Source of the DNA: a virus
Taxonomy: Duplodnaviria; Caudoviricetes
Direction: 5' to 3' (one strand)
DNA length: 64,000 nucleotides
Virus record (IMG/VR): IMGVR_UViG_3300043447_000100
Location: 1-64,000 of that record
Every line of letters begins with the position of its first letter. Within the stretch, counting starts at the first letter, position 1. This document shows, piece after piece, positions 6,001 through 35,604 of this stretch. Both the position numbers and the translations under genes were made by a program. Below the pieces are notes generated by a model. That model searched no databases and was not told the origin of the DNA. It saw nothing but the letters and a program-made list of their open reading frames with translations.

Positions 6001-9000
6001 TAGCAGTAATAGTAACGCCTGTTAGCGTGATGGCACGAATACCTGAATCAACACTAGCAATAGTGTATGGCACGTTGTAGTCTAAGGCTTCTTCATCAAT
6101 TAGGTCAGCAACAAAGCGAACTTTGTTACCTACTGCTAGTGTAGCAACATCATTCAAGATGATAGCGTTGTTGCCAGTGTAGCAAGCGATAGCAACAGGA
6201 ACACGAGTTGTTGTAAACTCACTACTACCGTTTACGCTAATGATTGCTTCTTGGTATGACGCAACACGCGGCTCAGTAGTGTAAATTGTGATACTGTTTG
6301 TGTCCAAGTCAACTTGATTTGGTACGAATGTATAAGTCTTGCCTTCTGAGAATGAGGCATCTTTTACAGTTTGATATGGGAACTTAGTACCGCTCATCAA
6401 CTGTGACATATCACTTGTAGTAAAGCCTGGCATATTAGCACGTGGCTTGTAGAAACCTACAATGCGATCAAGGGCGTTTAGAGAAATATCGCCGCCGTCG
6501 ATTTCGTCCCAGTATTTGAAGTCAAACTCTCTAGTTAGTTCGTCAGTCTTTAGGTCAATGTTAGCGCGGAATACTGAGCCAGAGAACACAACTAGGTCAC
6601 CCTTGCTGTAGTACTTGCCCTTACTCCAATCTTTAGAGTCCCAGCCACCTACGCCCCAACGTGTGATTGATGCTTCCCAGTCTGTTGCGTTTGACTTGAA
6701 TGATGTGCGATCAAACTTCATCGCAACTTTCATCTCACGAACAGGAATGTTGTCGGTGTAAATCTTGACACGAGCAGTAACGCCTAGTGTGCCAGCAACT
6801 TGATCGCCTTCAGCAAAGTTGACACGATCTTTATCTGTCTCAGGTACTGCTGAGATTGATAGCAATGAACCTACCACAACACGAGTATCGTTTAGACCAG
6901 CACGTGCTTCCTCTAGTGTGCTATGTAGGGCGATGCGTTGTTGACTTCTGTAGTTTGATTCTACTAGGTCAGTACTTGCTACGCCAATTGTTTCAACATA
7001 GTAGTATTCAGGAACATCTGGTGTTCTTTCGGTAGTTACTCTTACATAATCACCGGTTCTGAATGGTAGATTATCAATAGAGGTTTCATCTTCAAGAGTT
7101 ATGAATGGATAACTCTTGACTAGTGGATTGCCGCCAATAGGGTTAGGATATGTAACATAGAGTGGGTCACTCATTAAGGTTGGTGACCATGTTACAGATT
7201 GAACGCCGTATTCTATTTCGGTAGTTGTGTAGCCTGTTAGACTATCCTTGTAGCTATCGTAAAGAGCAATATGCTTGTCATCAACAATCTTTAGATAGTA
7301 GTAGCGGTAGTTCTTCAAGCCTTGAGTAGCACTGTCATCTTGAATATTGACTACGGTTACGCAGTCACCGTCCTGGAAATTGTGACCTACCATGTAGATT
7401 TGACTTAGAACGTGATCGACCTGTGTTGAGTTGAAGAATGAGTTGATTGAACTCTGTGATACTCTGACTTCAGGTAAGGTTGGGTAACCGCTGCCTGGCT
7501 CAACAACTTCAACTGAACGAACATAGTCACTCTCTAAGTGAGCGTGTAGGATAGCTTCTGTTCTTACGCCGTAAGGATACTCTGTTGTGTCGTAGTAAAC
7601 TGAAACTTTAGGCGCAGAAATATAACCGCGGCCTTCGTCCATGATGTTTGTTAGTGTAGGCAATAGATACACTAGTGTGCCTGCTTCGTGCGGCAATACT
7701 TTGATGTATGTAGTGTTGCGGCGTAGATCACTGATAGTGTTAGTCTTGCGATCTAACTTGTTGTATTCAATGACTTCATCACCGATCTTGACCGTGCCAA
7801 ACGCTGGTAACACGCCAGTCTCGTCTAGTACCATATATATGTCAGTGTTCTTTACAAGATATGTTAGAGAACTTACTAGAACTTTAGCAGTTTGTGAGTT
7901 ACTGATACTTAGACCGTGATTTGCTAACCAGTCTTGATAGATTGTCTGAGTCCACTCAGCATCATCTTTGGTGTACTGATTATCTGCAGTGGCGGCTGCG
8001 TTAGTCAACAATAGCTGTGGTGACTCGAACTTAGCACGAGAGGTGATGTAGCGACTTGGCAAATCAAAGTCGGTAAAGCTGCCTTGGTATGTCTCAATGT
8101 CATCATAGTGGAATGCGAACGCTTTGATATGAACGTGATAAGGCTTGACTTCGTTTAGATAGCCCTCAACAAGTTGAGTTGCGTCACGCTGATACTTCTT
8201 ATATGGCTTCAACTGACGAATAGTGTGCTCAACGTCAACAAGACTTGTCTTGTTCAACCATGTTAGATAGTTCTGATCTTGTAGAGCTTCACTCTGAATG
8301 TAGTTGAACATTGTAATCAAACTTTGATTGCGTTCGATTGTTGTTTCGTTTTCGTAAAGTTGTTCATTGATCCAGCGAACGATGTAATAGATTTCTTTCG
8401 ATGGGATCGGATCTGTTTGTGTGTACAACTTGCTCTTGATTTTAATTGTGCTGTCTTGTAGACCAACACGAGTCCAACCATCTGCTGTACTGTAAACATA
8501 GATTTCATTTACACCGGCGCCATTCTTAGCAACACGAACAACTAGACCGTCAGAGATTGTTGTTGTGCCTGTAGCGCCAACATATAAGCCACCAGCACTT
8601 AGTGTTAGTAAGTCTGTGTATGAGTCAACTTCAAACATAACTTTAGTGTCAGCACTGTAGCCGTCTGCCCACCAATATGTGTATTCCCAGTACTCAGCCG
8701 TGTCAAACAACTTGCCGCTCATTGAGCCAAAGTAATCGTTTAGCTGAATTGCTGAACCGCCTGGTGTTGCACTCAAGCGAATGTATTGACCGTATATGTC
8801 AGTACCGATAGTAGAAACGCCTGATGCTTCTTTGATATAGTAAGTTGTGTTTACTGCTAGACCGCCGTAAGCGTTGTCTTTGAATGTAATAGGCTGACCT
8901 GCGTATAGACCCGTTACTTTTGTGCCGTCGCTGTTGCTGATGTACAATCTAGATGTGCTGTTAGCAGTAACTTCTACGGTGATATATTGCTCTTGATTCA

Positions 9001-12000
9001 ACAAATAAACACCGCGAATTTCAGAGATAGGATATTTTGCTGCCACGTTGTTAGCATATTGAACAAAGTTCTTTAGTGCTAGTGCGCGGTCAATAAACAT
9101 GCTCTGACGAGGACGGAATGATGTGCCGTAACGAGCTAATGCTGGTAGTGCTGGGTCAGGAACAACTGCGCCTGTCAAGTCTAAGCCCATGAATGAAGTC
9201 AAGTACTTCAAGTACATACCGGTTGGTTCATCTAAAACGTTCAATGGTAGACCTTGTAAGAAGCTACCGTCATCACCGTCTTGAATTAATGACCAGTCTG
9301 TGTGACCTTGATCAGGATTTGAACCGATACTGTAACCCAAGTGTAGAGCAGTGCTGCCGTCTTGAATTGAATCTTGCGTATTGAACAACGCAATAACGTT
9401 TGTTGTTAATGCGACTAAGAAAGGAATACCACTTGACTTAGGATCAAGAATATATTGAGCTAAGTTAGCAGGACTGATTGTCTTGCCTTCTGGAATTTCA
9501 TCATAATTTTTTACCCAGAAATAGAATAGATACTTGGTTGAGTTTGTTGAATTATCAAAGTATTGTGTTGTCACGAACTTGTCTAAGTTAGTAACATAGC
9601 CTGAGCCTTGATAATCAGTAGGGGTGACTGTGCTTTCTACCCACGTGTAGATGCCGACAGTACTGCCTGGGAACGCTTTGCCAAAATACTTTGAGTTGTA
9701 AGCAACATCGGCTACGATAGTGTCAGTGGCAGCATCGTGATACGTCTGGTTGTAGTTCATCATACGTAACTCGGTAGTATCGATCCATACGTGACCTACT
9801 TTATTCTTAGCCCAGATTACACCTGAAGTATAGTCTGCAGGATCATGTGAGCCGATATAGTCACTATTGATCTCAATAGCACTCAACATCTTGCCTTGAA
9901 CAGGGTCAATATAATCTAAGTATTCTAAAGTTGAGTTTGTTAGGGTATCATATAAGGATACTGAAGTTAGACGGTTAGCATCTACTTGTGGTAGGCCGCG
10001 TTTGTTTTCGTACCATGTAGAGTGACGTACTGATGCTGTTGATGATTTAGGATCTTCTGCGCCTAGCGTAAAGCGTAGGACACGACCAGCGCCGTTCTCG
10101 TACCAGTTCTTAGAACCGATAACGATTACGTTTTCATGATAAGCGATTGCTTCGCCATAGCGAGATACTGTGGCTTTTGCGCCTCGAGCAGTAATTTCGG
10201 CTGCTGATTGTGTGATTGGGTTACAGTATTGACCGAATACAAACATGCCAGGCTTATCTGCGCTTTCTTCTGCTGTAGGCATGTAAACATATTGATAAAC
10301 GCTACCAGCATTTTCAGTTTCTTCTACAAATGTAGTTGCGCCGTTGTCAAAGATTGTATCGTTTGCTTCGTAGTCGTCTGTAAAGTCAAATGTTGTTTCT
10401 GATAGTGACTTGTCGTTAGGAGCACCAACTAAGATAGCATCTGTTAGTTTGCCTGGTAGTCTAGACATAGCAACAGTGTAGCCGAACTGACCTACGCTAT
10501 CGTAATCAATATCATAGATAGTTTGTATATTAGTGTACGCGGTGATACCTAAGTTTGTTAGGTCAGTCATAGTAGCACCAACAAGGTCGATCTGGTCGTC
10601 AGCGGTAGCAGTTGTGCCTGGCTTGTTAGTGATTGTGATAACGTCAGTAGTGTTACTGTAATCAGCAACAACGTTAGTAGGTTCGATTGAGTTGATTTGA
10701 TATGCTACACGATTGCGAGGTGATGCTGTGTAGCCTAGTGCTACGATAGCAGTATCATCATTCATGTCTTGTGAGTCATAAGGTACAGCAAAGCCGTCGA
10801 TAAAGATTGTACCAAAGACATTAGCAGTGCTTGATACCGTAGCGTAAACTTTGCCGTAGCGTTGACCTAAGTTAGTCCAGCGATATACAGCGCCTTGAAC
10901 GTTTTGATGGTCATCAACGTTGTTCATTTCGTACGGTGCGCCTACAAATACTTCAGCGCCGTATCTGCTTGTGGTAACTGACTTGCCGTATTGAATGCCG
11001 ATGTTAGGGTTCTTACTTACAGTTACTTGTTGTAGCACTAGGTTACTGAAATCAACGTAGATAGTTGAGCCTACTGGTGGTGCCGTGTTGAATCTTAACG
11101 TTGTATAATTTTCAAATGAGTAGTCGGTAGTAGGAATCAATTCACTGTTGATGTACACTGCGACTGCGCCGACTCGAGGCTTAGCTGTAGTGTTTTTATC
11201 AATAATACTAGTTTCAATAGTAAAGACTTGCTTGCCGATAATGTCTTGAATATAAGAACGTGAAGCACGATCATAGAAGTAAACTGTGCCCTCGTTTGAG
11301 CCTTTAGTGCCTACTGCTAGTGGAGCGCCTACGATTAGTTTAGAACCGTCAGCCGATGTAGTTAGTACTTTGCCGAAACCCCAGCCGCTTGTAGGCGCTT
11401 GTAGTTTGTTGACATAGTGGAATGTTGTGCCGTCAAACTTGTAAACGAATACGCAGTTAGCGCCGCCTAAGTAGACCCACTGTGTTTCAGTGTATGTTGT
11501 GTTGCCTGTGTTTGCCTTGTTTGACTTTACCGCATCACTAACGCTGATAACGCCGTTAGCAACGATCAAATCAGCGTGTGTGACTTCTGTTAGTTTGTAG
11601 TATGTGATGCCGTTGTTTTTCTCTGAACTACCGAAGTCGACCATGAAGAAGCCAGTGCCTGGGTTAGCAATGTAGGCACGATCAGTAATCACCGTTCTTG
11701 TGCCGTCGGCATTTAGTGTGATATCATATGTACAAGTAGCAACAACTTGTGCTACTGATGCGTCTTTTAGAGACATAGTAACATCGTAGGTTGTTATGGC
11801 TGGTGTGTCGTTTGACACTGTGTAGAACTTGACAAGACCGCCGTTAGCATAAAGCACATTGTTGCCTAGAGTTAGCACACGATCATTAGCATACGCTACT
11901 GATGTACCATAGTAAGCGTCGGCACTGTATGTGTCTTGTGCTACGGTCGTAGAAAAATCATAATTTTTTGGATAAGTGTACTGATACTCTGGTGTGCCTT

Positions 12001-15000
12001 CATAGACCGCCCAGTTGCCGGTACTATCATCGTCGATCCAGCGCAAGCGTGAAGCAAACTCACTGTACTTGACATGATTAGATGCTTTTGCTAGGTCACT
12101 TGCTTGTGCCATGCGAACTGCTTGTAACTTGAATGTGATGCCAGTGCCAGTCAATGACTTGACTGTTTTAGCAAGTGTAATAGGTAGTACGATTGTTGAA
12201 AGTGAAGGTACTGAACTTACTTGATAGTAGCCGTCAACATTAGAGTTGAAGTCAATAATAGTAATAGGATCGTTAGCAACAAGACCGTGGGGCTGAGCAA
12301 ACTCAACTGTTACTGTTTTGTTGAAGTTGTTAGTAACTGTTGAAACTGTTGTGCCGATACTAACAGGCGTGAATACATTCCATGTGTCTTTGTAGTTAGC
12401 AACCCAAACATAGTCGCCTCTATACAACTTAGAAACCGCGTCAGTAACATCATTCAAGTCACTGAGTGTGTATGCTTGCCAATCAGTGTCATCAATGTTT
12501 ACGTAACCGGCAGTAGGCAGACCACGCTCATCGTTGTATGCTGATGTGAATAGTGGCAAGAAGTTTGCGTTTACTGGTGGGCGTTCAAAGTTGATTAGTT
12601 CATTCTGATAACTGTAACCAGTAACATCAACATTATCTTTTAGTTTTGTATCACCAACAGCAACTTTTTGGCCAACTGAAGGCATTGATACTAGTGATAC
12701 TGTTGCTGACTTAGATACACCGTTGATAGATGTAGAAATAGTAGGCGCTGGCGATGAGTCACCAAAGCCGATTGTGCTTGGGTTGCCTGTTAGTAAGTTC
12801 TTGTAGAGTTTGACTTCAACAAAGTTACTGTTGAGTACACTGCCGAACTGACCGTTCAAGATTGCCCAGTTTTCACGAACGTCATAGTCTAGTTCGCCTT
12901 GTAGTGGAGTAGCACCAACGAATGTCTCGGCAGTAGCCTTTGTGCCTTTGCCCTGAATCATTTGTTGATACAAGCGTACTTGTGCTGTATCAGTTAGCGC
13001 GGCGTCAGCAAAGAACTTGCGAGGACGGAAGCCGATTAGACCGAACGCTAACAAGTCTTCGTCTTGCTCTAAGTTTGCTTGCTGTGGGTTATACAAGGCA
13101 ATACTTTCACTAGCGATTGTACTTGGGTTAGGTAGCAAGCCTTGGCGAATGTCGTCATAATTAGACTGTGACCACTGTGTGTAGTCAAAGTCAGAGCCTG
13201 CTTCGATTAGTTCGATTGCGCTCCAATATTCGTTCTTGTAGGTAACGATTTGACCTTTAGCGTACTTGTTGCCCTTGCTCCACTCTTTGATATCTGATTG
13301 ATTTAGAATAAAGCCGTGAGCGTTTACATAGCCGCTCCAGTTTGCGGTTTTCTGGCCCTGAATAATTAGACGAGCTTGACGTAGACCACTTGCTGGTGAG
13401 TAGATTGTGTCACCGAAGATTGTTTGATTGTCGAATACAACTGCGTGTTCGATTGTTGCTAGGTTGATGTTAGTAAACGCAACACTGTCGCCATCACTTA
13501 GAATACGAACGGTTAGTGTTTCGTTGTCACGAATAACAGCCATGTCTTGATGTGCTAGTGGCACTAAGTTCTGATTGAGAACAAAGTTTTCATCGCCTAG
13601 TGTTAGAGGTTGTGGTACTGTGCCTGCTTTGTATGCTTTGAATTCACGAGCGTTAGGGTTCAAGGAGATAGTTGAACCAACTTCCCACTCTTGTTGTGCC
13701 CATGCTAAGAACTCTTTGATCATTAGATTCCAGTCTACCTGATCAGTACCGCGTAGATTGTCAAAAATCACGCCGTGTTCTGCTTGCCAACGACCATAGT
13801 TGCGAATGAACTCTGATACGCCTTGTGTAGTGTAGAACTCTGTGCCATAAGCGATAGGAACAGTAGACGTTGGGTCGTACACTGTTGATAGTTCAACTGA
13901 TGCTCTATTGATTGTAATCTTCTCATACAAGCCTGCTTTAGGCTCTACTGTGTGAAAGTATGGATCAACTAAACTGTTGCCCCAAACTTGATAACCAGAG
14001 TTAGTCTTTTGAATGATAACGCTTGAATAAACTACTGTATCAACAGGCACATCATCATACAATAAGATGCTGTAGCTGTCGTCAGGAATCACTAAGTTAG
14101 TTTGTGTAGCACTTGGTGCTGTGTTCTCAGTTAGGAAACGCAAGAACTGTTTGTCAGAGAAGCCGCCGATCTTATAGATCATACGAACATCTGTGTTTTG
14201 TAGAGCAGTCTGTACTTGTTCTTGACCGCTGTTGCCGTGACGCTTGATGTAGTCAACTACCCAGTTCATATAACTGTGTTTAGCAGTGCCAGCACCATAT
14301 ACTGTTAGTTGTCGTGGGTCTAAACGATAGCGGTCGTTGAATACGAACTGCTGTAAGTCTGAGTTGTACTTGTATGTGTCTAAGTCAGCACATAGGTTGT
14401 AGAAGTCTGCTGGTCTGAATGTTGATAGTAGTTTTACTAAGTCAAACGGCCAGGTTGATGAACGACGGTATGCTGCCTCTGTTGGGCCCATGTCACCTAC
14501 TGTCCAGTCACGGTTGAATGTTAGACTGTCGTAGTTGCCAACGATGCGCTCTAGTGGGTCAACTAGTTCACCTAGTTCGTTGACAGGTAGTGCGTCTAGT
14601 AAGCCTGGACGAACAAAGCGTTGATTTACGATTGGGTTGCCGTCGTTCCAGATTAAGCCGTCAGCAATGTCTTGCCACATTACTTCGTTGCCTGATGTGT
14701 ATGGCGCAACGCCGTAGCGTGATTCCCACCATGTTGGCTTGTCTGCTAAGCCTAGCATTTGCCATGGTTGACGAGCTGGGTCTACTGTGTCATAGAACCA
14801 TTGATAGATACCGCGCCAGCCGCCTTGCTTCAACAAGCCGCCTGATAGTTTGTTTGTGCTCTTGCCATAGTTGTAACTAAACTTGTCGTTGCGGATAAAT
14901 GTTTGCTTGCGCCAGTTACTGATTCTGTTTCTACCAACCCATGATAAGAAGTTCTTAGTGTACGCTGGTAGTAGTTCTTCAAATGTGTAGTGTGTTTTTC

Positions 15001-18000
15001 TCCACTCGCCTGGGAAGATATCAGCGTAACCGATTGCGGCTGGCTGAGCGATCTTTAGGTTGTTGAAGATACGAGTTTCAAATTCTAAGAGGGCAATGTC
15101 ACGGAAGTCATTGAACTTGCCGTCAGCGAATGTGCCATAGAGTTTTGTTAGACTGCCATCGTGACCTTGAATCATGTAGATTACTGTGTCAAGTTGTTGC
15201 TCAGTAACTACACGAGGAGCAAACGCTTGATACAAGCCCAACTTTGTTGGTGTGTTAGGAACATAACTGCCCCATGTCTGATTGTATTCACGAACTGTTA
15301 CTGTTGAACCTCTTGTGATAGCACGAGTTAGCAGTAGTGATGAGTCTGTTGTGCTAACAGTGTAATCGCGGCCGCGTAGTAGTTGCTCTGTGCTACCTGA
15401 AGTTGTAGTTAGATAAACTGCTAGACCATAGTAGTTTGCGGTAGTGTAATCATACACACGAGATAGTTTGAATACTGCGGTAGTAATATCTACTTCGTAT
15501 GTAACAGTTGAAGTTTTGTAAGGGCTACCACTAACGAGCATGTCTGACCAGTAGAACGAATTCTTTTCATTCTTTGTGCTAGAGATGCGGTAGATGATAT
15601 CGTCTAAGATTTCAGCTGGGCTTTGACGAACGCTGTAATCACTTGCGGCGGCTAGTTCAACAATCTTTGCTTTGTAGTCGCTGTATTCTACAGCACTGTG
15701 CTGTAGGGCATGAACTAGATTGAACTCAGGGTTGCGCAAGAATGTAGCAGGTAGCACTAGACTTGCTGAGTTTTGAACGATAGCAGTGCCGTAGCGAGTT
15801 AGATCGCCTGCTTCACTAAAGTTGTTGATACCGTTAGGAACACCAGTCAAGCCTGGTGAGTTTCTGAAAATACTGCCGTAGTAGTTGTTCAAGTCGCCGT
15901 TCGCAACTGACTTTAGTTGCTCGTTGAACGGGTTGTTAGTCATGTTAGACGGAATCTGGAACTTAGATGTTGGGCTAACTTGTTCACTGATGAAAAGAAC
16001 TGATACTTGATCGCCTGCTGATAGCTCAGTGTCGAACACAATGTTTGTGATGTTCTTTTTGGTGTTGCGAGTAACGGTATAATCAGCGGTAGAAATAAAG
16101 TCGCCGTTCTTATAAACTTGAACTGGTGACCATGAACTTGTTTGCTCACTTACTAATACGTCAAGTGTTACCATAGCAGTAGCGATAGTAATGTCTTGTA
16201 CATTGATTTGATATTGCTGACTTTGAGCGACTGATTCAACCCAGCCTGTGCGCTTGACTGTAGCACCGTTGACTGTTTGATGAATGAAACCGTCGCTGAT
16301 GTTTTTGGTTACTGTTGCGCCTGCGTTTGTGTAAGTGAACGTATCACTGTTGAGATTGACTGTGAATAAGAAGTCGCCTGTGTTTGCTGGGCTACTGTAT
16401 TCAACTGAGAAGCCTAGTACAGCATCGTTAGTTGCTGTTGAACTGCCGATAGTGTAACTGAATAGTTTAGTACCACTGAACGCAGAGTTTGTGTATGTAG
16501 AGAAACTTACGCCGGTAGCATCAAACGCATCAAATAGCGGTGCTTGATTGATAGCAGTTTTCTTTTGACTTTCGATCCAGCCTGTTTCGCCAGTTGGAGT
16601 TGTGCCCCAGCGCCATGCTGTGCCCAAGTAGTCACCAGGACCTTGAGCAATGTAAATTTGTGAATCAGTGTCAACTGTCACACCGACTACCGGTGTTAGA
16701 GAGATTTTCTCTACGTTGTTTGTTTTGATACGTTTGACATCGAATACTGTTTTGCGAATACGCTCGTCTTCATCTGACGCGAATACAATACGGGTGCCGC
16801 TACCAAGTTCGATTTCACTTTCGCCTACGATTCGCAGGTTGTATTCGCCTTGTTTTACGTTGACTAGCGGTGCGCCGCCTTCGTATGTACTTGTACTAAC
16901 TGCGATTGAGCGTTGTACGTGGTCAACTTGACGAACATAGTAAGTTGTGCCCGCTGTTAGACCGGTAGGCAATTTACCCGACAATGCTGTGAATGTTACC
17001 GGCATGTCTTTGACTAGGTATGTCGTATCGTTGACAATGATACCAAAGTCTGTGACTGAGCGTGATGTGCGAACTACTGATGATAAGACAGAGAATGAAC
17101 TTGCGCCGTTTACGTTCTTCATAGCATTAGTTTCACGTGTGTCTAAGAAGTTGACAATACCGGCACTAACTGTGCCACTATCAAACATACGCAAGTCACT
17201 TTGAAACTCGATAATTGGGCGTGAAGCACGAGTCTGTGTGTTGTATTGGTTTGCTGTTACATAACCGTTGTATTTGAAATGAGTGTCGATAACGTTTTGG
17301 TGGAACCAGCGGTTAGAACGACTCCATGCGTTACGATCCGCACTTGCGCGGTCGATTGTGATGTAGTCAGGCTGAATAGGAACATAGAGCGTGATACTCC
17401 AGTCTGTTGTGTCGTATGGATCATTGTCCCAAGGAATGTACATACCACCGCCGGTAATTTCTGTACATAGCATCTCGGTGACTGCGATTAGTTCGATTGA
17501 TGTGCCTACGCCTTGAACATAGTACGCCTTGTTTCGATACGCTTCTTGCTTGACGTTACTGCCCAAGTCGATCTTTAGGCCGTTGATTAGGGTTAGACCG
17601 CTAGGTGTTGTGTATGTTTTCTGACCAATGATTTGAGTAACGTCTAGGGTATCGCTTAGTTTGATAGCATCAGGGCCTAGAGGTAGCCAGTAGTATTGAG
17701 AGAAGTTTACTGCTTTGTCTAGGTTGATGAAACTGTCCCAGCTGTATAGCTTGTTAGTGAATAGCTTGTTGTGATCTTGGGCAGTCCAGCCTTGATTACG
17801 CAGGGCACGAACGATGCCTGGGTAGTCAATGAAGTCTGTAGTTACAGAGGTGTCTTTCTTCTGGAAAGTAACGGCAGGGTCGAACTGATAGTCTGAACGC
17901 TCTTTAGTAGGCTCAACTACATACTTGTCTGTTGGAGAAATAGCATAGCCATGTCTGTTGCCAATGTAGCCCTGGACAGTTTTCATGTCCGGTTGTGATG

Positions 18001-18094
18001 TTAGAACATCTAGCGTTGCGGCTAGAAATTGCTGATTTGTCTCGGTCTTGAAGATTGATGGGAGAAAATCTAGTGTTCTGACTTGTTGTGCCAT
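92..18094 (-). CDS. Giant 6000-aa virion structural protein, probably a baseplate wedge/fibre-platform protein with FG-GAP-like propeller and CBM5/12-like repeats
   Basis: Uninterrupted 18 kb ORF just downstream of the gp6-like gene. FG-GAP-like motifs (GFGKVLTTSADGSKLIVGAP, YGKSVTTSRYGAEVFVGAP, FGYTVAMS..ILVGAP), about six W-x5-Y-x2-G-x2-V repeats, and repeated small beta modules (GLTAGTTYYV, GGLAVNTTYYI, PHGLVANDPITI). Confidence 0.8.
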   Translation of the reverse strand: MAQQVRTLDFLPSIFKTETNQQFLAATLDVLTSQPDMKTVQGYIGNRHGYAISPTDKYVVEPTKERSDYQFDPAVTFQKKDTSVTTDFIDYPGIVRALRNQGWTAQDHNKLFTNKLYSWDSFINLDKAVNFSQYYWLPLGPDAIKLSDTLDVTQIIGQKTYTTPSGLTLINGLKIDLGSNVKQEAYRNKAYYVQGVGTSIELIAVTEMLCTEITGGGMYIPWDNDPYDTTDWSITLYVPIQPDYITIDRASADRNAWSRSNRWFHQNVIDTHFKYNGYVTANQYNTQTRASRPIIEFQSDLRMFDSGTVSAGIVNFLDTRETNAMKNVNGASSFSVLSSVVRTSRSVTDFGIIVNDTTYLVKDMPVTFTALSGKLPTGLTAGTTYYVRQVDHVQRSIAVSTSTYEGGAPLVNVKQGEYNLRIVGESEIELGSGTRIVFASDEDERIRKTVFDVKRIKTNNVEKISLTPVVGVTVDTDSQIYIAQGPGDYLGTAWRWGTTPTGETGWIESQKKTAINQAPLFDAFDATGVSFSTYTNSAFSGTKLFSYTIGSSTATNDAVLGFSVEYSSPANTGDFLFTVNLNSDTFTYTNAGATVTKNISDGFIHQTVNGATVKRTGWVESVAQSQQYQINVQDITIATAMVTLDVLVSEQTSSWSPVQVYKNGDFISTADYTVTRNTKKNITNIVFDTELSAGDQVSVLFISEQVSPTSKFQIPSNMTNNPFNEQLKSVANGDLNNYYGSIFRNSPGLTGVPNGINNFSEAGDLTRYGTAIVQNSASLVLPATFLRNPEFNLVHALQHSAVEYSDYKAKIVELAAASDYSVRQSPAEILDDIIYRISSTKNEKNSFYWSDMLVSGSPYKTSTVTYEVDITTAVFKLSRVYDYTTANYYGLAVYLTTTSGSTEQLLRGRDYTVSTTDSSLLLTRAITRGSTVTVREYNQTWGSYVPNTPTKLGLYQAFAPRVVTEQQLDTVIYMIQGHDGSLTKLYGTFADGKFNDFRDIALLEFETRIFNNLKIAQPAAIGYADIFPGEWRKTHYTFEELLPAYTKNFLSWVGRNRISNWRKQTFIRNDKFSYNYGKSTNKLSGGLLKQGGWRGIYQWFYDTVDPARQPWQMLGLADKPTWWESRYGVAPYTSGNEVMWQDIADGLIWNDGNPIVNQRFVRPGLLDALPVNELGELVDPLERIVGNYDSLTFNRDWTVGDMGPTEAAYRRSSTWPFDLVKLLSTFRPADFYNLCADLDTYKYNSDLQQFVFNDRYRLDPRQLTVYGAGTAKHSYMNWVVDYIKRHGNSGQEQVQTALQNTDVRMIYKIGGFSDKQFLRFLTENTAPSATQTNLVIPDDSYSILLYDDVPVDTVVYSSVIIQKTNSGYQVWGNSLVDPYFHTVEPKAGLYEKITINRASVELSTVYDPTSTVPIAYGTEFYTTQGVSEFIRNYGRWQAEHGVIFDNLRGTDQVDWNLMIKEFLAWAQQEWEVGSTISLNPNAREFKAYKAGTVPQPLTLGDENFVLNQNLVPLAHQDMAVIRDNETLTVRILSDGDSVAFTNINLATIEHAVVFDNQTIFGDTIYSPASGLRQARLIIQGQKTANWSGYVNAHGFILNQSDIKEWSKGNKYAKGQIVTYKNEYWSAIELIEAGSDFDYTQWSQSNYDDIRQGLLPNPSTIASESIALYNPQQANLEQDEDLLAFGLIGFRPRKFFADAALTDTAQVRLYQQMIQGKGTKATAETFVGATPLQGELDYDVRENWAILNGQFGSVLNSNFVEVKLYKNLLTGNPSTIGFGDSSPAPTISTSINGVSKSATVSLVSMPSVGQKVAVGDTKLKDNVDVTGYSYQNELINFERPPVNANFLPLFTSAYNDERGLPTAGYVNIDDTDWQAYTLSDLNDVTDAVSKLYRGDYVWVANYKDTWNVFTPVSIGTTVSTVTNNFNKTVTVEFAQPHGLVANDPITIIDFNSNVDGYYQVSSVPSLSTIVLPITLAKTVKSLTGTGITFKLQAVRMAQASDLAKASNHVKYSEFASRLRWIDDDSTGNWAVYEGTPEYQYTYPKNYDFSTTVAQDTYSADAYYGTSVAYANDRVLTLGNNVLYANGGLVKFYTVSNDTPAITTYDVTMSLKDASVAQVVATCTYDITLNADGTRTVITDRAYIANPGTGFFMVDFGSSEKNNGITYYKLTEVTHADLIVANGVISVSDAVKSNKANTGNTTYTETQWVYLGGANCVFVYKFDGTTFHYVNKLQAPTSGWGFGKVLTTSADGSKLIVGAPLAVGTKGSNEGTVYFYDRASRSYIQDIIGKQVFTIETSIIDKNTTAKPRVGAVAVYINSELIPTTDYSFENYTTLRFNTAPPVGSTIYVDFSNLVLQQVTVSKNPNIGIQYGKSVTTSRYGAEVFVGAPYEMNNVDDHQNVQGAVYRWTNLGQRYGKVYATVSSTANVFGTIFIDGFAVPYDSQDMNDDTAIVALGYTASPRNRVAYQINSIEPTNVVADYSNTTDVITITNKPGTTATADDQIDLVGATMTDLTNLGITAYTNIQTIYDIDYDSVGQFGYTVAMSRLPGKLTDAILVGAPNDKSLSETTFDFTDDYEANDTIFDNGATTFVEETENAGSVYQYVYMPTAEESADKPGMFVFGQYCNPITQSAAEITARGAKATVSRYGEAIAYHENVIVIGSKNWYENGAGRVLRFTLGAEDPKSSTASVRHSTWYENKRGLPQVDANRLTSVSLYDTLTNSTLEYLDYIDPVQGKMLSAIEINSDYIGSHDPADYTSGVIWAKNKVGHVWIDTTELRMMNYNQTYHDAATDTIVADVAYNSKYFGKAFPGSTVGIYTWVESTVTPTDYQGSGYVTNLDKFVTTQYFDNSTNSTKYLFYFWVKNYDEIPEGKTISPANLAQYILDPKSSGIPFLVALTTNVIALFNTQDSIQDGSTALHLGYSIGSNPDQGHTDWSLIQDGDDGSFLQGLPLNVLDEPTGMYLKYLTSFMGLDLTGAVVPDPALPALARYGTSFRPRQSMFIDRALALKNFVQYANNVAAKYPISEIRGVYLLNQEQYITVEVTANSTSRLYISNSDGTKVTGLYAGQPITFKDNAYGGLAVNTTYYIKEASGVSTIGTDIYGQYIRLSATPGGSAIQLNDYFGSMSGKLFDTAEYWEYTYWWADGYSADTKVMFEVDSYTDLLTLSAGGLYVGATGTTTISDGLVVRVAKNGAGVNEIYVYSTADGWTRVGLQDSTIKIKSKLYTQTDPIPSKEIYYIVRWINEQLYENETTIERNQSLITMFNYIQSEALQDQNYLTWLNKTSLVDVEHTIRQLKPYKKYQRDATQLVEGYLNEVKPYHVHIKAFAFHYDDIETYQGSFTDFDLPSRYITSRAKFESPQLLLTNAAATADNQYTKDDAEWTQTIYQDWLANHGLSISNSQTAKVLVSSLTYLVKNTDIYMVLDETGVLPAFGTVKIGDEVIEYNKLDRKTNTISDLRRNTTYIKVLPHEAGTLVYLLPTLTNIMDEGRGYISAPKVSVYYDTTEYPYGVRTEAILHAHLESDYVRSVEVVEPGSGYPTLPEVRVSQSSINSFFNSTQVDHVLSQIYMVGHNFQDGDCVTVVNIQDDSATQGLKNYRYYYLKIVDDKHIALYDSYKDSLTGYTTTEIEYGVQSVTWSPTLMSDPLYVTYPNPIGGNPLVKSYPFITLEDETSIDNLPFRTGDYVRVTTERTPDVPEYYYVETIGVASTDLVESNYRSQQRIALHSTLEEARAGLNDTRVVVGSLLSISAVPETDKDRVNFAEGDQVAGTLGVTARVKIYTDNIPVREMKVAMKFDRTSFKSNATDWEASITRWGVGGWDSKDWSKGKYYSKGDLVVFSGSVFRANIDLKTDELTREFDFKYWDEIDGGDISLNALDRIVGFYKPRANMPGFTTSDMSQLMSGTKFPYQTVKDASFSEGKTYTFVPNQVDLDTNSITIYTTEPRVASYQEAIISVNGSSEFTTTRVPVAIACYTGNNAIILNDVATLAVGNKVRFVADLIDEEALDYNVPYTIASVDSGIRAITLTGVTITANATGWGSLVIDNTFSTTGTRTDAGTTTGGTITLATTANIATGYIVQFNTADVFGNIDGKKQFYVQSVESGNKIKIAETFGGPAVTYIDTDTRAPISPSTTPQPPMSITIVPYPANARGDYYASANARPTLETTYVTGDLVKAIYTSPTARTTSYYYARNVGNKITLHPTPNDATANLNKVTVPRGTLGRLVKPQTVIALADPIDDPIGTVTEVIYSDSYPQTDFGLINNVNYWMAVVDDNSVAIYESKDEAENDYNRVPLLTLGAGQLSTIVYDSLVGNPGMSEEIDIKGMDFEYGFSPEELVAGVVTDGINMTVKTIAGATWNQNLTAKGAVTTTNMAHTGFNMVKIKGAIQGAIKRKDGTVISGVSAISFRDVVANPVSVTVYRNVGITQTRLIPQTDNPGITAEYTVNWVDQYVEIVTPGTDTFDIVVYEYGNGVHLVRGTTDNYPLRSVKDYGKTNQYHSEIELDIPYSQIDLPSDENYWLSVMVHMGTSSSDAKRLTYITNFTDAAYGETDPASINYGHHYSIQPVRALDPVNDPFNPAKIVFNKFYVPTDTFVSFAIATNVLGHFVVGGTHGEVLENGVLKTLYNATAKQLEYQVPVVGDVTDIAIYKNDAILTPADYTAVTVGTTLTVTFADEDINFGDIIKVTDKRQGGISVPVTQHIVSTQGASSNFTETINLALRNVAITGTGGQFTCQSTQLSTDLTKLTMYVTLPSGTTYSGTGSISGFSTASSGSKIYKLSATNGKSSFTLVNEDGSAVTTTAGTTTGLVFTLAKEKTVQRTTLELTEFLGDDNYSAITVDRIENGIFRCASTTRLEEGMTITLTGTSEKFDNTKKYHQGDRIAGDGTNGTAGKVYSVNGNTIAGKGFTIGTGTHQWTLVGDLATIVGYNSPKVYYIAISDTVQSTDGYTYFKLSSYFGGTADVVTTDGYIAGMTFSTQNNLIVEINGLRYDGPAPTQVYRKIIHVDKNPQVSYPAPVYGISDFDIGYFTVQVNGAEIPQVDPADATKVNWNVNYDFQSGTFYQFDADFINANFFQDWDSALTYDIGYVVVVGSSLYRAVTSNTNKPPAANTPTDWALTSASEIFTGLFDDGTPFDNKFSFNVVFNPNETPLYENDIVTLSYQVPGETPPDLYTITTNANKIGGKINVLTQVFPTSTSTISVTTFGRTTDQKLSTQRITDATVSYIPVFNSTLAKTAGGFFKGLQIDSTQPPLVTFDNPHNLLNGQLVFVSGEGINPAFRMNNRKFYVSTVNYFDSSSVQDVTRQMYLYNVDPTVNRVWNNTTTYYDGDVVFLGSKYYVALKSNVNKNPTTEVLTWAETDFWVTGSSSLTARTPNTNSYVQLIDNFNPSLNIAKNSMVVQPQLLSDWQIVPNYQGTYSTWVNGQRYESNQYVQRDGVIYRSIVRTSTPPSAGIKFTNVDRLFVSVIDKDNDYLREYIPASKLQLQDINGVNTLIVEAEIVPGDKVLVTSFVPTASPNETRFRINQTWSTVTGTPNTPVIYRENAYTRTYITSVSYDADGIAESFKVKDPFALVSLATFSATGDYSARTVTFDTDAGLYATIIDGLESDRITNLKFTKPDGSSINTGFEWFTLTNVNTTKVYFYNNPGSVVYAQVASGNEVLINGENLRFKEINIDYTSPDFGKISGLQRGRDYTRSLAANDYTENTDVIAEHIVKYAQVQGVLEENKMSAKRAISTFYDRVVTRSITARDNSTGVYTFSYDTNGVNTIGTALNDRITQLSTGDKISFYNGATKCATFVNNINVANTVATTGKFNFLVSDNSDIRYAQVGSDITFTYTGNSKEVKYYNPVTRETSNVFTIVDSYYNTEYVEYTAASVAANKQDSSVPLVKKDIWTIEIAEPLNIDILDSSNPVMRANVQIFNEYTISSVVQNAGNVVITLNNVVEIDNIDPDTGDIFGNVTATFPTTIVADSANDSFSTASILRRVVDLPLVIETTGVAEFLNQQIR

Positions 18095-33455: not shown

Positions 33456-33971
33456 ATGGCAAGTAAAAGTAAGATCAAAGGCAGTAGTTGGGAGCGTGAT
33501 TGCGCAAAATTCCTAACTGAGCTATACGGAGCAACATTTATTCGTAATATTACGGGTAGTGGCGCATACATCGGTGGTAAAAACATCACTCGTAAAGCAA
33601 ATCTTACTGAGGGTCAAATTCGCAGTAGTAAGGGCGACATTACGCCGCCTGATGACTGGGATCAGTTCAACGCTGAAGCTAAAAACTACGGCGAACTCGA
33701 CTTTCACAACTTCTATGTAGGTTGTAGACAACTAGATGTGTGGTTAGAACAACTAATCACAGTCGCCGATTCAAATGACTTTAATATACTCATGTTTAAG
33801 ATCACACGAAGAGGTAAATATGTTGCCGTTCAACCTAATCAACACTTGACTTTTGTAAATTATACAGTGTATAATAGCAAGACGTTAGGTCAGTGGTACA
33901 TCACTGATTTTGACGAATTCTTTGCTAACAATAGTAAAGTTGTTGAATCTCTATCTAAATCACTAAAATAA
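33456..33971 (+). CDS. Holliday junction resolvase, PD-(D/E)xK (Hjc-like)
   Basis: SKIKGSSWER, SGAYIGG, GDI, AEAKNY catalytic pattern. Confidence 0.8.
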   Translation: MASKSKIKGSSWERDCAKFLTELYGATFIRNITGSGAYIGGKNITRKANLTEGQIRSSKGDITPPDDWDQFNAEAKNYGELDFHNFYVGCRQLDVWLEQLITVADSNDFNILMFKITRRGKYVAVQPNQHLTFVNYTVYNSKTLGQWYITDFDEFFANNSKVVESLSKSLK

Positions 33972-33978
33972 AACTATC

Positions 33979-34069
33979 GTTCGAACCACCGAGATAAAGG
34001 GGTCGATCTACTACAATTAGGTTTATATCAATACTGTTCGAACTGGCGAGATAAAGCGGTCGATCTACT
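33979..34069 (+). repeat. Two 34-bp direct repeats (33979-34012, 34036-34069), each a hairpin with a GAGAUAAA loop
   Basis: GTTCGAACcacCGAGATAAAGgGGTCGATCTACT vs GTTCGAACtggCGAGATAAAGcGGTCGATCTACT; the 4 differences keep the stem (C-G to G-C swap, C-G to U-G wobble, bulge change). Confidence 0.85.
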
Positions 34070-34095
34070 TTTTAAAATCAAAATAGTCAAACAAA

Positions 34096-34555
34096 GACTC
34101 AAACTAGAAACGTACTCGTGGCAATCCGACACTGCCCGTGGAGAAAGACCAAAGTGGGGTCAATACTAACCACAACAAGTCTCTAAACGCAAAATCTCCC
34201 TCGGAAGAGGATTACTGCGCCCGACAGACTTGAGTCCATCATACTCATACAACGGGCAAACACTATAGGTTCTATCGGTGCTTCGGCGAACGTTCTACCT
34301 TGGTTGTGAAAAATAACAACCGAACAGAAGAAAATTACAGGGGGGAGACCTTGAGCTACGTCTGCGTTATTTACAGCAGATGTGGTTCAAGTGTTTATGT
34401 TTCGCCTCGTTTCACTCGCCGAAACTCGTGATCGTACCGCTTCGCTAAGTACGACACGAGACCTGTAAACAAAAAAAGAATAGGTCAGAAGGCTCTGAAA
34501 GAGCCAATGATAAGACGGAACGGAACGAAGTGGAGTTCCTCTTCGAATGAGAGGA
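34096..34555 (+). ncRNA. Candidate large structured non-coding RNA or structured origin region
   Basis: No ORF; at least ten nested helices, including a 16-bp stem whose three non-Watson-Crick pairs are all G-U on the + strand, plus C(UUCG)G and GGAA tetraloops; ends approximate. Confidence 0.65.
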
Positions 34556-34786
34556 TTAAAAGAAAGGAAGTTTCGTCTTCTTAGTAGTTTCTAAGTTCTC
34601 TTCAATTACCGAATTAATTGCTTCGGTTTGTTTATAGGACATGTTGAGGACATCTACGAATGTAACTCCACCTCTCATGTACCAACTCATCTTCAGTGCG
34701 TTCTTTTCAATCGCATCTGCCTGTTTGACCATATCTTCGGTCAACTTCTCAACTTGGTCAGGACTTTTGTCGAGAAGGATTAACCG
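34556..34786 (-). CDS. gp51-like / tail assembly chaperone C-terminal module, probably made as a -1 frameshift extension of the gp26-like gene
   Basis: LKMSWYMRGGVTFVDVLNMS-type helical motif; frame is open back through the slippery site at the end of gp26-like; no convincing RBS of its own. Confidence 0.7.
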   Translation of the reverse strand, partial: RLILLDKSPDQVEKLTEDMVKQADAIEKNALKMSWYMRGGVTFVDVLNMSYKQTEAINSVIEENLETTKKTKLPFF

Positions 34787-34795
34787 AAAAAATTT
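34726..34795 (-). promoter_or_regulatory. Programmed -1 ribosomal frameshift signal (slippery site plus stem/pseudoknot)
   Basis: A-AAU-UUU-UUC at 34795-34786, 8-nt spacer, 9-bp stem CUUCUCGAC/GUUGAGAAG, loop UGACCA complementary to downstream UGGUCA. Confidence 0.75.
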
Positions 34796-35604
34796 GTATA
34801 GTTCAGTTCAAGTGGTTGTGAATACTCATTACTACAGTGTGAACATTTGATATCTAGAGGAGTGTCACTGTTAGAATTGCGAATTTTACCACTAAACTCT
34901 TTGATAGCAGTGTTAGTTTTAGTATCGCATTTTTCCATGAACTCTATAATGTAAGCATTTTCACGGACAGTTACTTCAGGTGTCTTGATATACTCAATAG
35001 TTTGTGCTACTACTTCAATCAACATTGCTGTTAATTTGTTCATGCTGTCTTTAGATAACTGTTGCTTTTGTTCACTATCTTCCATCTGCTCAAGTTGAGC
35101 AATCATGCGCTGAACTTCAAACTGGCGCATAGCGTTGGCATTTACTTCAGCGTAAGTCAGTGGTCGGAACTTGAATTCAAGATCGCCAATAGTTAGCACT
35201 TCGCTATAGTCTAACTTTCGCTGTTTTTCCATGAGCAGTTTCATCAAATCAACATCAAATTTAGTTGACTCTTCGCACTTAGGGCAAGTGCTTTCAATGT
35301 CTAATTTACCATCAACACTAGCCGCTCTAACTGCTACGATTAGGGCGTCACTATCTAACTCACTCAACTTCCACGCATCTTTTACTGCTGGAACACAGTT
35401 TTCGATAACCTGGACGATAGCTGTGCCGTTGAACAGGGCGTCTGGAGTACGCAGGACAATCTCATCCGCGTTAGTCATAGGGTAAATCGCAACTTCACCA
35501 GTCGGTGATACTTCAACGATGCTAGGATCATAATAGTTTGTGCCTGACGGCAGTTTGTAATAGAACGCTGGACGACGGAAATATTGTTGTAATGGGTTTG
35601 ACAT
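34780..35604 (-). CDS. gp26: Baseplate hub assembly chaperone, gp26-like
   Basis: YYKLPS...IYPMTNADEI...LIVAVRAAS...CPKC...FRPLTY...CSHC...NFF pattern of T4-like gp26 homologues. Confidence 0.75.
   Translation of the reverse strand: MSNPLQQYFRRPAFYYKLPSGTNYYDPSIVEVSPTGEVAIYPMTNADEIVLRTPDALFNGTAIVQVIENCVPAVKDAWKLSELDSDALIVAVRAASVDGKLDIESTCPKCEESTKFDVDLMKLLMEKQRKLDYSEVLTIGDLEFKFRPLTYAEVNANAMRQFEVQRMIAQLEQMEDSEQKQQLSKDSMNKLTAMLIEVVAQTIEYIKTPEVTVRENAYIIEFMEKCDTKTNTAIKEFSGKIRNSNSDTPLDIKCSHCSNEYSQPLELNYTNFFG

Follow-up and report, generated by a model that had tools for sequence, protein, structure and literature searches.

What does a large phage keep in the one long stretch of its genome that no gene covers? 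The question is raised by a 590-base gap at positions 33969-34558 of the window, i.e. the whole 64,000-nucleotide (nt) stretch of DNA analysed here, which is the first 64 kb of the 183.7-kb virus record IMGVR_UViG_3300043447_000100 of the IMG/VR database (completeness estimate 52%). The portal protein of this virus is 46-50% identical to its homologues in Agrobacterium phage Atu_ph07 and Pseudomonas phage PA5oct, so that the source is regarded as a jumbo phage, not yet cultured, whose core is T4-like. Stop-to-stop frames (70-codon) leave the gap uncovered and, as a preliminary description of the window had it, this is the only large non-coding gap, i.e. the sole long one in the 183.7 kb that is not made of transfer RNA (tRNA) genes, a single longer uncovered stretch lying in a tRNA array. 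The answer given here is that the gap holds a structured non-coding element of ~400-480 nt, outside all described RNA families. That its structure is real and under selection is held with great confidence, and that it works as RNA rather than as DNA is likely; that it is a large structured non-coding RNA (ncRNA) of a new family, acting in trans as a protein-binding scaffold or decoy, is the reading favoured on balance.

Regarding coding potential, no protein-coding gene common to the versions of the element compared was found, the longest stop-free stretches running to 43-112 codons with strand and frame differing between versions. Searches with Rfam 15 (4227 models, including transfer-messenger RNA (tmRNA), RNase P, 6S, group I/II introns, GOLLD, ROOL, OLE, CrcZ and riboswitches) gave no match at the gathering threshold over the whole window, none in eight related loci and, at E<=10 over 33900-34850, only chance-level matches to eukaryotic small nucleolar RNAs and microRNAs (E 0.6-6). 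ARAGORN finds neither tRNA nor tmRNA in the window, the same tool finding 19 tRNAs elsewhere in the genome as a control, and blastn returned no DNA match among 50,697 deposited phage genomes. In addition, a literature search on structured RNAs of jumbo phages returned nothing specific. The preliminary description had seen no core motif of RNase P, tmRNA, tRNA or group I/II introns and had proposed an undescribed phage ncRNA; the cmscan against Rfam that it named as a check, together with ARAGORN, bears out the former, and these null results, the lack of a consistent ORF (open reading frame) and of a deposited-phage match and the strong covariation described below bear out the latter. A group I/II intron was rejected as a candidate: Rfam gives no intron match, the two converging genes that flank the element are complete, so that none is interrupted, and what distinguishes relatives is the swapping of domains rather than whether a gene contains the element.

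Does the gap fold better than chance, and on which strand? Against a background of 100 dinucleotide shuffles, the minimum free energy of the + strand of 34096-34555 is -149.6 kcal/mol vs. -118.5 +/- 6.4 (z -4.88; 0/100 shuffles as good) and the - strand reaches z -2.70, so that the shuffle comparison suggested at the outset speaks for structure and places the + strand ahead of the other. Homologous elements, designated hereafter by the numbers of their locus records, give z -3.4 (L002), -5.7 (L003) and -2.1 (L005). The strand was also judged from wobble pairs, both G-U and A-C being allowed while anchored stems were extended and terminal non-Watson-Crick pairs being trimmed: distinct anchored stems hold seven interior G-U vs. 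no A-C wobbles, the hairpin P7 contributing three further G-U, and the folding strand is therefore the + strand.

The evidence that carries the structure is comparative. Relatives were gathered through protein neighbours, exact-pattern scans of IMG/VR, one metagenome scan and a model search of locus records, which yielded about a dozen distinct versions (window, L004, L002, L003, L015, L016, L018, L025, L031, L034, L039, L005 and L030/L122); three other records (L022, L026 and L036) were discarded as chance pattern matches in GC-rich coding DNA. The element is single copy per genome in model and pattern searches, and in all versions it lies 3' of a PDDEXK nuclease gene, facing the 3' end of a small ORF and of the baseplate-hub operon. 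In the window, the gap sits between two converging gene blocks, i.e. a + strand block encoding a gp55-like late sigma factor, gp47-like and gp46-like proteins and a PDDEXK_15/RusA-like nuclease (stop at 33971), and a - strand block with the baseplate-hub gene (34780-35604) and the small conserved ORF (34556-34744). L006, whose nuclease is 41% identical, is more distant, and its gap is just 212 nt, mostly coding.

Across the versions, the dominant pattern is a hairpin loop that stays fixed on a stem altered by compensatory substitutions (P0, P2, P3, P3a, P4', P5, P6, P8, P9 and P11); the anchored hairpins P0, P2, P6, P8 and P11 show two to six different stems each around the same loop. For the 5' domain, a MAFFT alignment of seven sequences (A7) has 92.9% of its cells paired vs. 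27-45% when the partners are slid by 1-3 columns, and seven pairs change on both sides, with a covariation score reached by 0/500 shuffles. In a model-fitted alignment of nine distinct rows including L002 and L003 (A8), which is biased towards the model, 15 of the 26 pairs change on both sides (0/500 shuffles), and partners slid by 1-3 columns pair in 27-43% vs. 92% for the true ones. Covariation among homologues, which the preliminary description had named as a check, is therefore strong in the 5' domain and, as detailed below, in P8.

The structure starts further out than the 34096-34555 first proposed, with its 5' end at or before P0 (34085-34099, + strand, as are the features that follow unless stated otherwise; AGUC [AAACAAA] GACU), a hairpin whose loop is carried by ACAGGUC/GACCUGU in L015 and by ACAGGU/ACCUGU in L018 and L034. 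P1, given by RNAalifold, closes the 5' domain by pairing the strand UAGAAACGU (34105-34113) with 34290-34297. Within it, P2 (34117-34138, arms 34117-23/34133-38, loop AUCCGACAC) changes on both sides at all seven pairs, the stems being GGCA/UGCC, ACAGACA/UGUCUGU (L018), ACUGAUG/CGUCAGU (L034), GGAG/CUCC (L002) and CUGGC/GCCGG (L003), the last two with loops that differ from that of the window. P3 (AG..AGAC/GUCUCU, turned into CUCUG/CAGAG in L002) encloses P3a (GUGG/CCAC) at 34142-34184 around the conserved loop GGNCAAUACUAA; P3a occurs as GUGG/CCAC, GAGU/GCUC, GCGU/GCGC, GCGC/GCGC and GAUC/GAUC, with 100% of cells paired. P4 (CGCA/UGCG, 34188-34219), missing in L002, encloses P5 (CCUC [GGAA] GAGG, 34199-34210), in which three of the four pairs change on both sides. 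P4' (34219-34257, GCCCG 34219-23/CGGGC 34253-57, conserved loop ACAGAYYAA) reads GUCCA/UGGUC in L016, GUCA/UGAC in L018, GCCUG/CGGGC in L034 and GUCU/AGGC in L002, and accommodates an extra hairpin at 34232-34246 in the window and L004. The domain ends with a near-invariant 32-nt core (34268-34299) that comprises a small C(UUCG)G hairpin and the 3' strand of P1: the window, L002-L004 and L015-L017 have the same 32 nt, L018 departs from them at three positions, and L034 and L039 keep the GUGC/GCG stem with another loop. Despite this invariant core, the flanking genes of the window are 68-69% identical to those of L015/L016, the 5' half of the element being 81-84% identical. A kissing contact of the P2 loop (CCGA) with the core (UCGG), proposed by RNAalifold, was rejected, being weakened in L034 and broken in L018 (GACA).

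How do these helices compare with those first drawn by eye? The two-domain plan was roughly right, but several of its long-range helices were wrong. Instead of the long-range TGCCCGT/ACGGGCA, covariation favours the two local hairpins P2 and P4', because the P2 arms change together in L034 with ACGGGCA constant and the P4' arms change together in L018, L016 and L002. Similarly, the GTCT (34179-82) of the proposed CAAGTCT/AGACTTG is more likely paired with AGAC (34146-49), since L002 turns both into CUCUG/CAGAG. Besides, GACC/GGTC is broken in L016, L018 and L034, GACTCAA/TTGAGTC lies inside a 20-nt insertion restricted to the window and L004, and TTACAGG/CCTGTAA (UUACAGG 34335-34341 with CCUGUAA 34462-34468), which was to close the second domain, is found in the window only and is a doubtful member of the conserved structure; L004, L002 and L003 carry UCGCUGAAGCA in place of CCUGUAA, with 11 nt complementary to the core. 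The pairings TAGAAACGT/ACGTTCTA (P1) and CGCA/TGCG (P4) are conserved but offer no variation by which pairing could be judged, P1 being untouched by covariation because it is invariant in nearly all versions. By contrast with the failed long-range helices, CCTC-GGAA-GAGG (P5), the linker hairpin at 34300-34323 (P6) and GTTTCG/CGAAAC (P8) are all backed by covariation, and CTCGTG-A-TCGTAC/GTACGA-CACGAG (P9) and the 16-bp stem 34350-65/34376-91 (P7) also stand, as seen below.

P6 (34300-34323) presents its loop GAAAAAUA on four different stems, namely UUGGUUGU/RCAACCGA, CCAGU/ACUGG (L015), CCAGA/UCUGG (L018) and UAAUAGU/AUUAUUA (L034). It is followed by a purine-rich linker, AGAAGAAAA, with a run of six G (G6, 34340-34345), which together span 34324-34349 and are kept in all versions with the standard 5' domain. 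This run had prompted a comparison with ColE1 RNA II, in which the G tract would lock the transcript to its template as an R-loop and so start replication. The conservation of the run with its flanks (ACAGGGGGGAGAC) in most versions and the adjoining recombination and replication genes would suit such a primer, but the run is absent in L005 and nowhere upstream of P8 in the L030/L122 version, both of which keep the 3' module, and it is broken in L008, which belongs to a sister RNA described further on. Moreover, G6 has an intramolecular partner (UCUCCC 34197-34202, a strand also used by P5), the local profile of this 52%-complete record shows no GC-skew turn at 34.3 kb, no origin feature was found at the element, and the conserved loops would go unexplained; an R-loop primer is accordingly regarded as extremely improbable.

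The 3' module starts with P7 (34350-34391), in the window a 16-bp hairpin with three G-U pairs, at the position of which the other versions place a 9-10 bp hairpin of unrelated sequence. P8 (34399-34425) has a 15-nt loop with the consensus UAUCGCUUCGCUCAA (CCUCGUUUCACUCGC in the window) and occurs with six different stems, six of eight pairs changing on both sides (0/500 shuffles); with its model (R2), all versions reach 33-50 bits. The adjacent P9 (34426-34460, loop CGCUUCGCUAA) was judged by direct reading of each version, because the MAFFT alignment is out of register there and RNAalifold consequently meaningless: a 9-14 bp stem is found in all versions, with unrelated sequences, and its loop contains one or two UCGCU-like pentads. 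Even L004, which is 98% identical to the window, differs from it in P9 by an A-U pair flipped to U-A and by the position of a bulge. Of the three hairpins that were thought to follow in the same structure, P10 (34491-34505) is more likely a terminator on the opposite strand, and P11 (GGAAC [GGAACGAAGUGGA] GUUCC, loop GGAAYGAARUGGA), which overlaps P12 (34517-34554 for the pair), is supported by a stem change in L016 (GAGGC/GCCUC around a similar loop); L018 and L034 have another hairpin there, and P11 and P12 are taken as candidate members, on either strand.

On the sequences compared, the element is a mosaic, whole domains having been exchanged between near-identical phages around a nearly invariant core and loops. 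The 5' domain of the window resembles L015, L016 and L018 (71-82% identity) and its 3' domain resembles L002, L003 and L004 (95-96%). The nucleases of L002 and L003 are 100% identical to that of the window at the amino acid (aa) level, yet their 5' domains have strongly diverged; these are still recognised by the 5'-domain model (R1; E 1e-6 and 1e-5). In L005 and L030/L122, the 5' domains escape R1 and P8-P9 is retained. The P8-P9 module is thus found behind three different 5' domains (standard, L005 and L030/L122), and this 3' hairpin pair is therefore the oldest and most constrained part of the element.

What could such an RNA do? Constant loops on drifting stems, the same motif on two neighbouring hairpins and a P8-P9 pair shared across unrelated, interchangeable 5' domains argue for a scaffold or decoy acting in trans. 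The RNA would be read on the + strand, downstream of the sigma factor/gp47/gp46/nuclease block and converging on the baseplate-hub operon, and would be modular: P0-P5 and P4' closed by P1 onto the core, then P6 and the purine/G-rich linker, and then P7-P8-P9. The adjacent P8, with its UCGCUUCGCUC-type 15-nt loop, and P9, with its UCGCU-like pentads, would provide a handle for a sequence-specific RNA-binding protein, probably dimeric and supplied by the phage or the host, and the exchangeable 5' domain would confer a second, faster-evolving activity. Such a combination of a conserved 3' hairpin pair with interchangeable 5' domains suggests a handle-plus-payload logic. In one extension of this idea, which is rather unlikely, the P8/P9 pair would be the recognition module of a bacteria-wide protein and the phage RNA a takeover or anti-defence decoy that absorbs this host factor, with an arms race played out in the 5' domains. 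By analogy, one candidate host factor may be an endoribonuclease that cuts a UCGCU-type pentad; one MazF toxin reportedly cuts at a pentad of this type.

Several points weigh against a protein-binding RNA in trans. The mechanism by protein binding has the conserved loops as its one basis and is put forward tentatively. A single phage clade was sampled, with about a dozen distinct sequences, and the shuffle statistics are inflated by related rows as a result. Folded single-stranded DNA also tolerates G-T pairs, so that the strand asymmetry is no proof of RNA. No conserved promoter for the element was found among the homologues compared. Finally, P9 of the window lacks a + strand U run or intrinsic terminator and is followed by an A run, and in relatives the scanner misses P9 as a terminator because its loops are too long (11-24 nt).

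Where would the transcript start and stop? That the element is transcribed, and its ends, are inferred. A near-consensus sigma-70-type promoter (TTGACT, 18 nt, TATAAT; 11/12 matches) lies at 33846-33875 (+), within the 3' end of the nuclease ORF and facing the gap. L002 shares it with the window, but L015, L016 and L018 lack it, so that a role as the conserved driver was rejected. Between the nuclease stop and the element, two tandem hairpins (R1 and R2, at 33979-34012 and 34036-34069, +, distinct from the models of the same labels) share the loop GAGAUAAA with flanks GUUCGAAC and GGUCGAUCUACU, show compensatory differences between the copies, are unique to the locus within the 183.7-kb record and may be transcribed together with the element. 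L002, L003 and L004 share both copies with the window, L016 has a single one, and L015, L018 and L034 have neither. At the other end, a U-rich run comes 2-4 nt after P9 in L015, L018, L034, L039 and L122, for which reason the RNA probably ends after P9 in these versions; in L005 and L016 the run lies further downstream. In the window, the 3' end would fall between 34461 and 34555. P10 probably terminates the hub-gene operon, since a U-rich run comes after it on the - strand; equivalents followed by U5-7 on that strand are found in L005, L018, L034 and L122.

These features could also be read as those of a cis-acting 3' untranslated region (UTR), i.e. a structured tail of the recombination-gene operon that would stabilise the mRNA and, with P10, insulate the converging units. 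The position exactly between converging operons, the U-rich runs after P9 on the + strand and after P10 on the - strand and the lack of a separate conserved promoter all fit with it. Stability elements, however, need neither fixed loops of 7-15 nt nor a 32-nt core kept with neighbours at 68% identity; besides, L006 does with its short, mostly coding gap and the window version has no + strand U run. A 3' UTR is thus considered unlikely.

With its low but not trivial probability, a regulator that acts by base-pairing has to be weighed as well: loops, or antisense read-through, would base-pair with mRNAs of the phage or the host and so set the timing of late-gene expression. In its favour, no clear stop is seen for a + strand transcript of the window, which would continue across the 62-aa ORF and the hub gene in antisense orientation, and several loops are of seed length. 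Features that resemble those of Hfq binding are also seen, namely A-rich ARN-like tracts (the P0 loop and the AGAAGAAAA linker) and, in relatives, the U-rich run that comes after P9. Nevertheless, complements of a 9-mer of the P8/P9 loops occur twice in the 183.7 kb, both within ORFs and at chance level, and a base-pairing regulator rarely needs ~400 nt of conserved structure.

Were the hairpins rather formed by the + strand as single-stranded DNA, they could serve in replication or recombination as priming, nicking or recombination sites. That the mosaic exchange occurs precisely at the invariant core, that accessory ORFs are inserted alongside (L003, L005 and L030), that the upstream neighbour is always a nuclease gene and that the same 15-20 nt loop occurs in hairpins of a REP/MITE-like repeat (repetitive extragenic palindrome/miniature inverted-repeat transposable element) of a Methylomonas metagenome-assembled genome (MAG) could all be accounted for in this way. 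Features typical of RNA stand against it, namely a multi-helix domain closed over 190 nt by a helix, the GNRA and UUCG-type tetraloops and the U-rich runs after P9; in addition, no nick-site or iteron pattern was found at the element and T4-like phages are not known to need a single-strand origin. A DNA element is thus very unlikely. More specifically, an ssoA-type origin, defined by a conserved TAGCGT-like hexamer in a hairpin loop on the folding strand, was rejected as a candidate: on the wobble-favoured + strand the loops read UCGCU, not TAGCG, and AGCGA occurs on the other strand only.

Returning to the trans-acting scaffold or decoy, the element can be set beside known structured RNAs. 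Like GOLLD and ROOL, it is a large (400-800 nt), many-helix, phage-borne ncRNA of unknown function with conserved loops and junctions, found by comparison only. The models of these two families, however, give no match at the gathering threshold or at E<=10; GOLLD and ROOL usually adjoin tRNA genes, whereas the tRNA array of this phage lies ~128 kb away, and the element is mosaic with interchangeable 5' domains. The sponge RNAs (CsrB/RsmZ, CrcZ and 6S RNA) are likewise a few hundred nt long, repeat a binding motif in loops or A-rich single strands and keep loops fixed on free stems; the element differs in having only two UCGCUUCGCUC-type loops and no Rfam match, and a manual count found no enrichment in it of GGA (CsrA-type) motifs. 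With phi29 packaging RNA (pRNA), it has in common to be a phage-encoded structured RNA located among morphogenesis genes, with conserved loops as the working parts. That RNA is ~120-174 nt long, is confined to phi29-like phages and builds a ring through loop-loop complementarity; self-complementary loops were not found in the element. Closer at hand, the related jumbo phage PA5oct (portal 46% identical to that of the window) expresses ncRNA001-004, ORF-free transcripts of 236-619 nt, two of which account for 1-5% of phage reads (PMC7318152). The element is not to be equated with these, which are located at other loci and for which no structure was described (PMC7318152). Models R1 (5' domain) and R2 (P8) have no match in the genome of PA5oct or in Salicola phage SCTP-2. 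Large structured RNAs without a known job are rare and earlier ones proved biologically interesting; for so few sequences, the comparative support gathered here is unusually clean.

Does anything similar occur elsewhere? At the analogous locus of distant relatives, a second, different conserved non-coding block of ~500 nt was observed (L007:4391-4900, L009:3401-3920 and L008:2181-2690, in each case read on the - strand). A GIY-YIG-like ORF adjoins it, and the hub gene, the small ORF and a membrane ORF all lie upstream of it. For this sister block, folding is more favourable on the strand opposite the hub gene (-119 vs. -104 kcal/mol), where many G-U pairs are conserved, has 18 pairs with compensatory changes among the three sequences and has no Rfam match. 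A G run and an AGAAGRAAAA tract are common to this block and the window element, and one of its hairpin loops, GAGCGNNAGCGA, approximates the complement of the UCGCU-type motif.

Besides, a scan of bacterial genomes with the P8-loop pattern gave 73 matches, mostly coding for the peptide I-A-S-L-N-D. In at least six lineages, however, an exact 20-mer (ATCTCGCT[T/A]CGCTCAATAAC, or GGTATCGCTTCGCTCAAC) forms a hairpin loop whose 6-10 bp stems are unrelated, for which a rough estimate of the chance expectation is less than one case. In the Methylomonas MAG (L064, L072, L076, L086, L092, L097 and L106), the loop belongs to a multi-copy repeat of ~300 nt; in bacteria of the candidate phyla radiation (CPR; L056, L081, L085, L087, L104 and L105), the loop hairpin stands directly upstream of rnc and rplN, with its 3' arm over the start codon; in Paceibacterota (L047, L075 and L099), it is part of terminator-like hairpins next to tRNA genes. 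The same loop hairpin is also present in Planctomycetes (L050 and L118) and in an Ignavibacteria and a Clostridia MAG (L090 and L103). No Rfam family corresponds to this bacterial hairpin, and a literature search on the loop 14-mer returned nothing. Taken together, the sister block and the recurring bacterial loop suggest an RNA-protein recognition system of wider occurrence that has yet to be described. In the genome of the window itself, a P8-like hairpin, UGUCG [CUUCGCUAAA] CGACA at G000:C1:128950-128980 (L040, ~2455-2480), lies within the 3' end of a DNA helicase ORF and was set aside as probably due to chance.

As for the surroundings of the element, the junction between the nuclease gene and the RNA is an insertion hotspot. 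Accessory small ORFs occur there at L003:3642-3920 (+), L005:2762-3025 (+) and L122:1976-2164 (-), those of L003 and L005 sharing an FGKYKG...YL.W motif and the L030 type being a basic ORF of 62 aa. On the other side, the small ORF at 34556-34779 (-) is conserved as a protein in all relatives, with the motif AWYMRGG; its ATG start in L002, L003 and L005 reads AAA in the window and L004, which leaves a TTG or an internal ATG. The tRNA array comprises 19 tRNA genes on one strand at G000:C1:162100-165110 (L041). Further upstream in the window, a single ORF of 6000 codons extends over 92-18094 (-) and is followed by one of 1211 codons.

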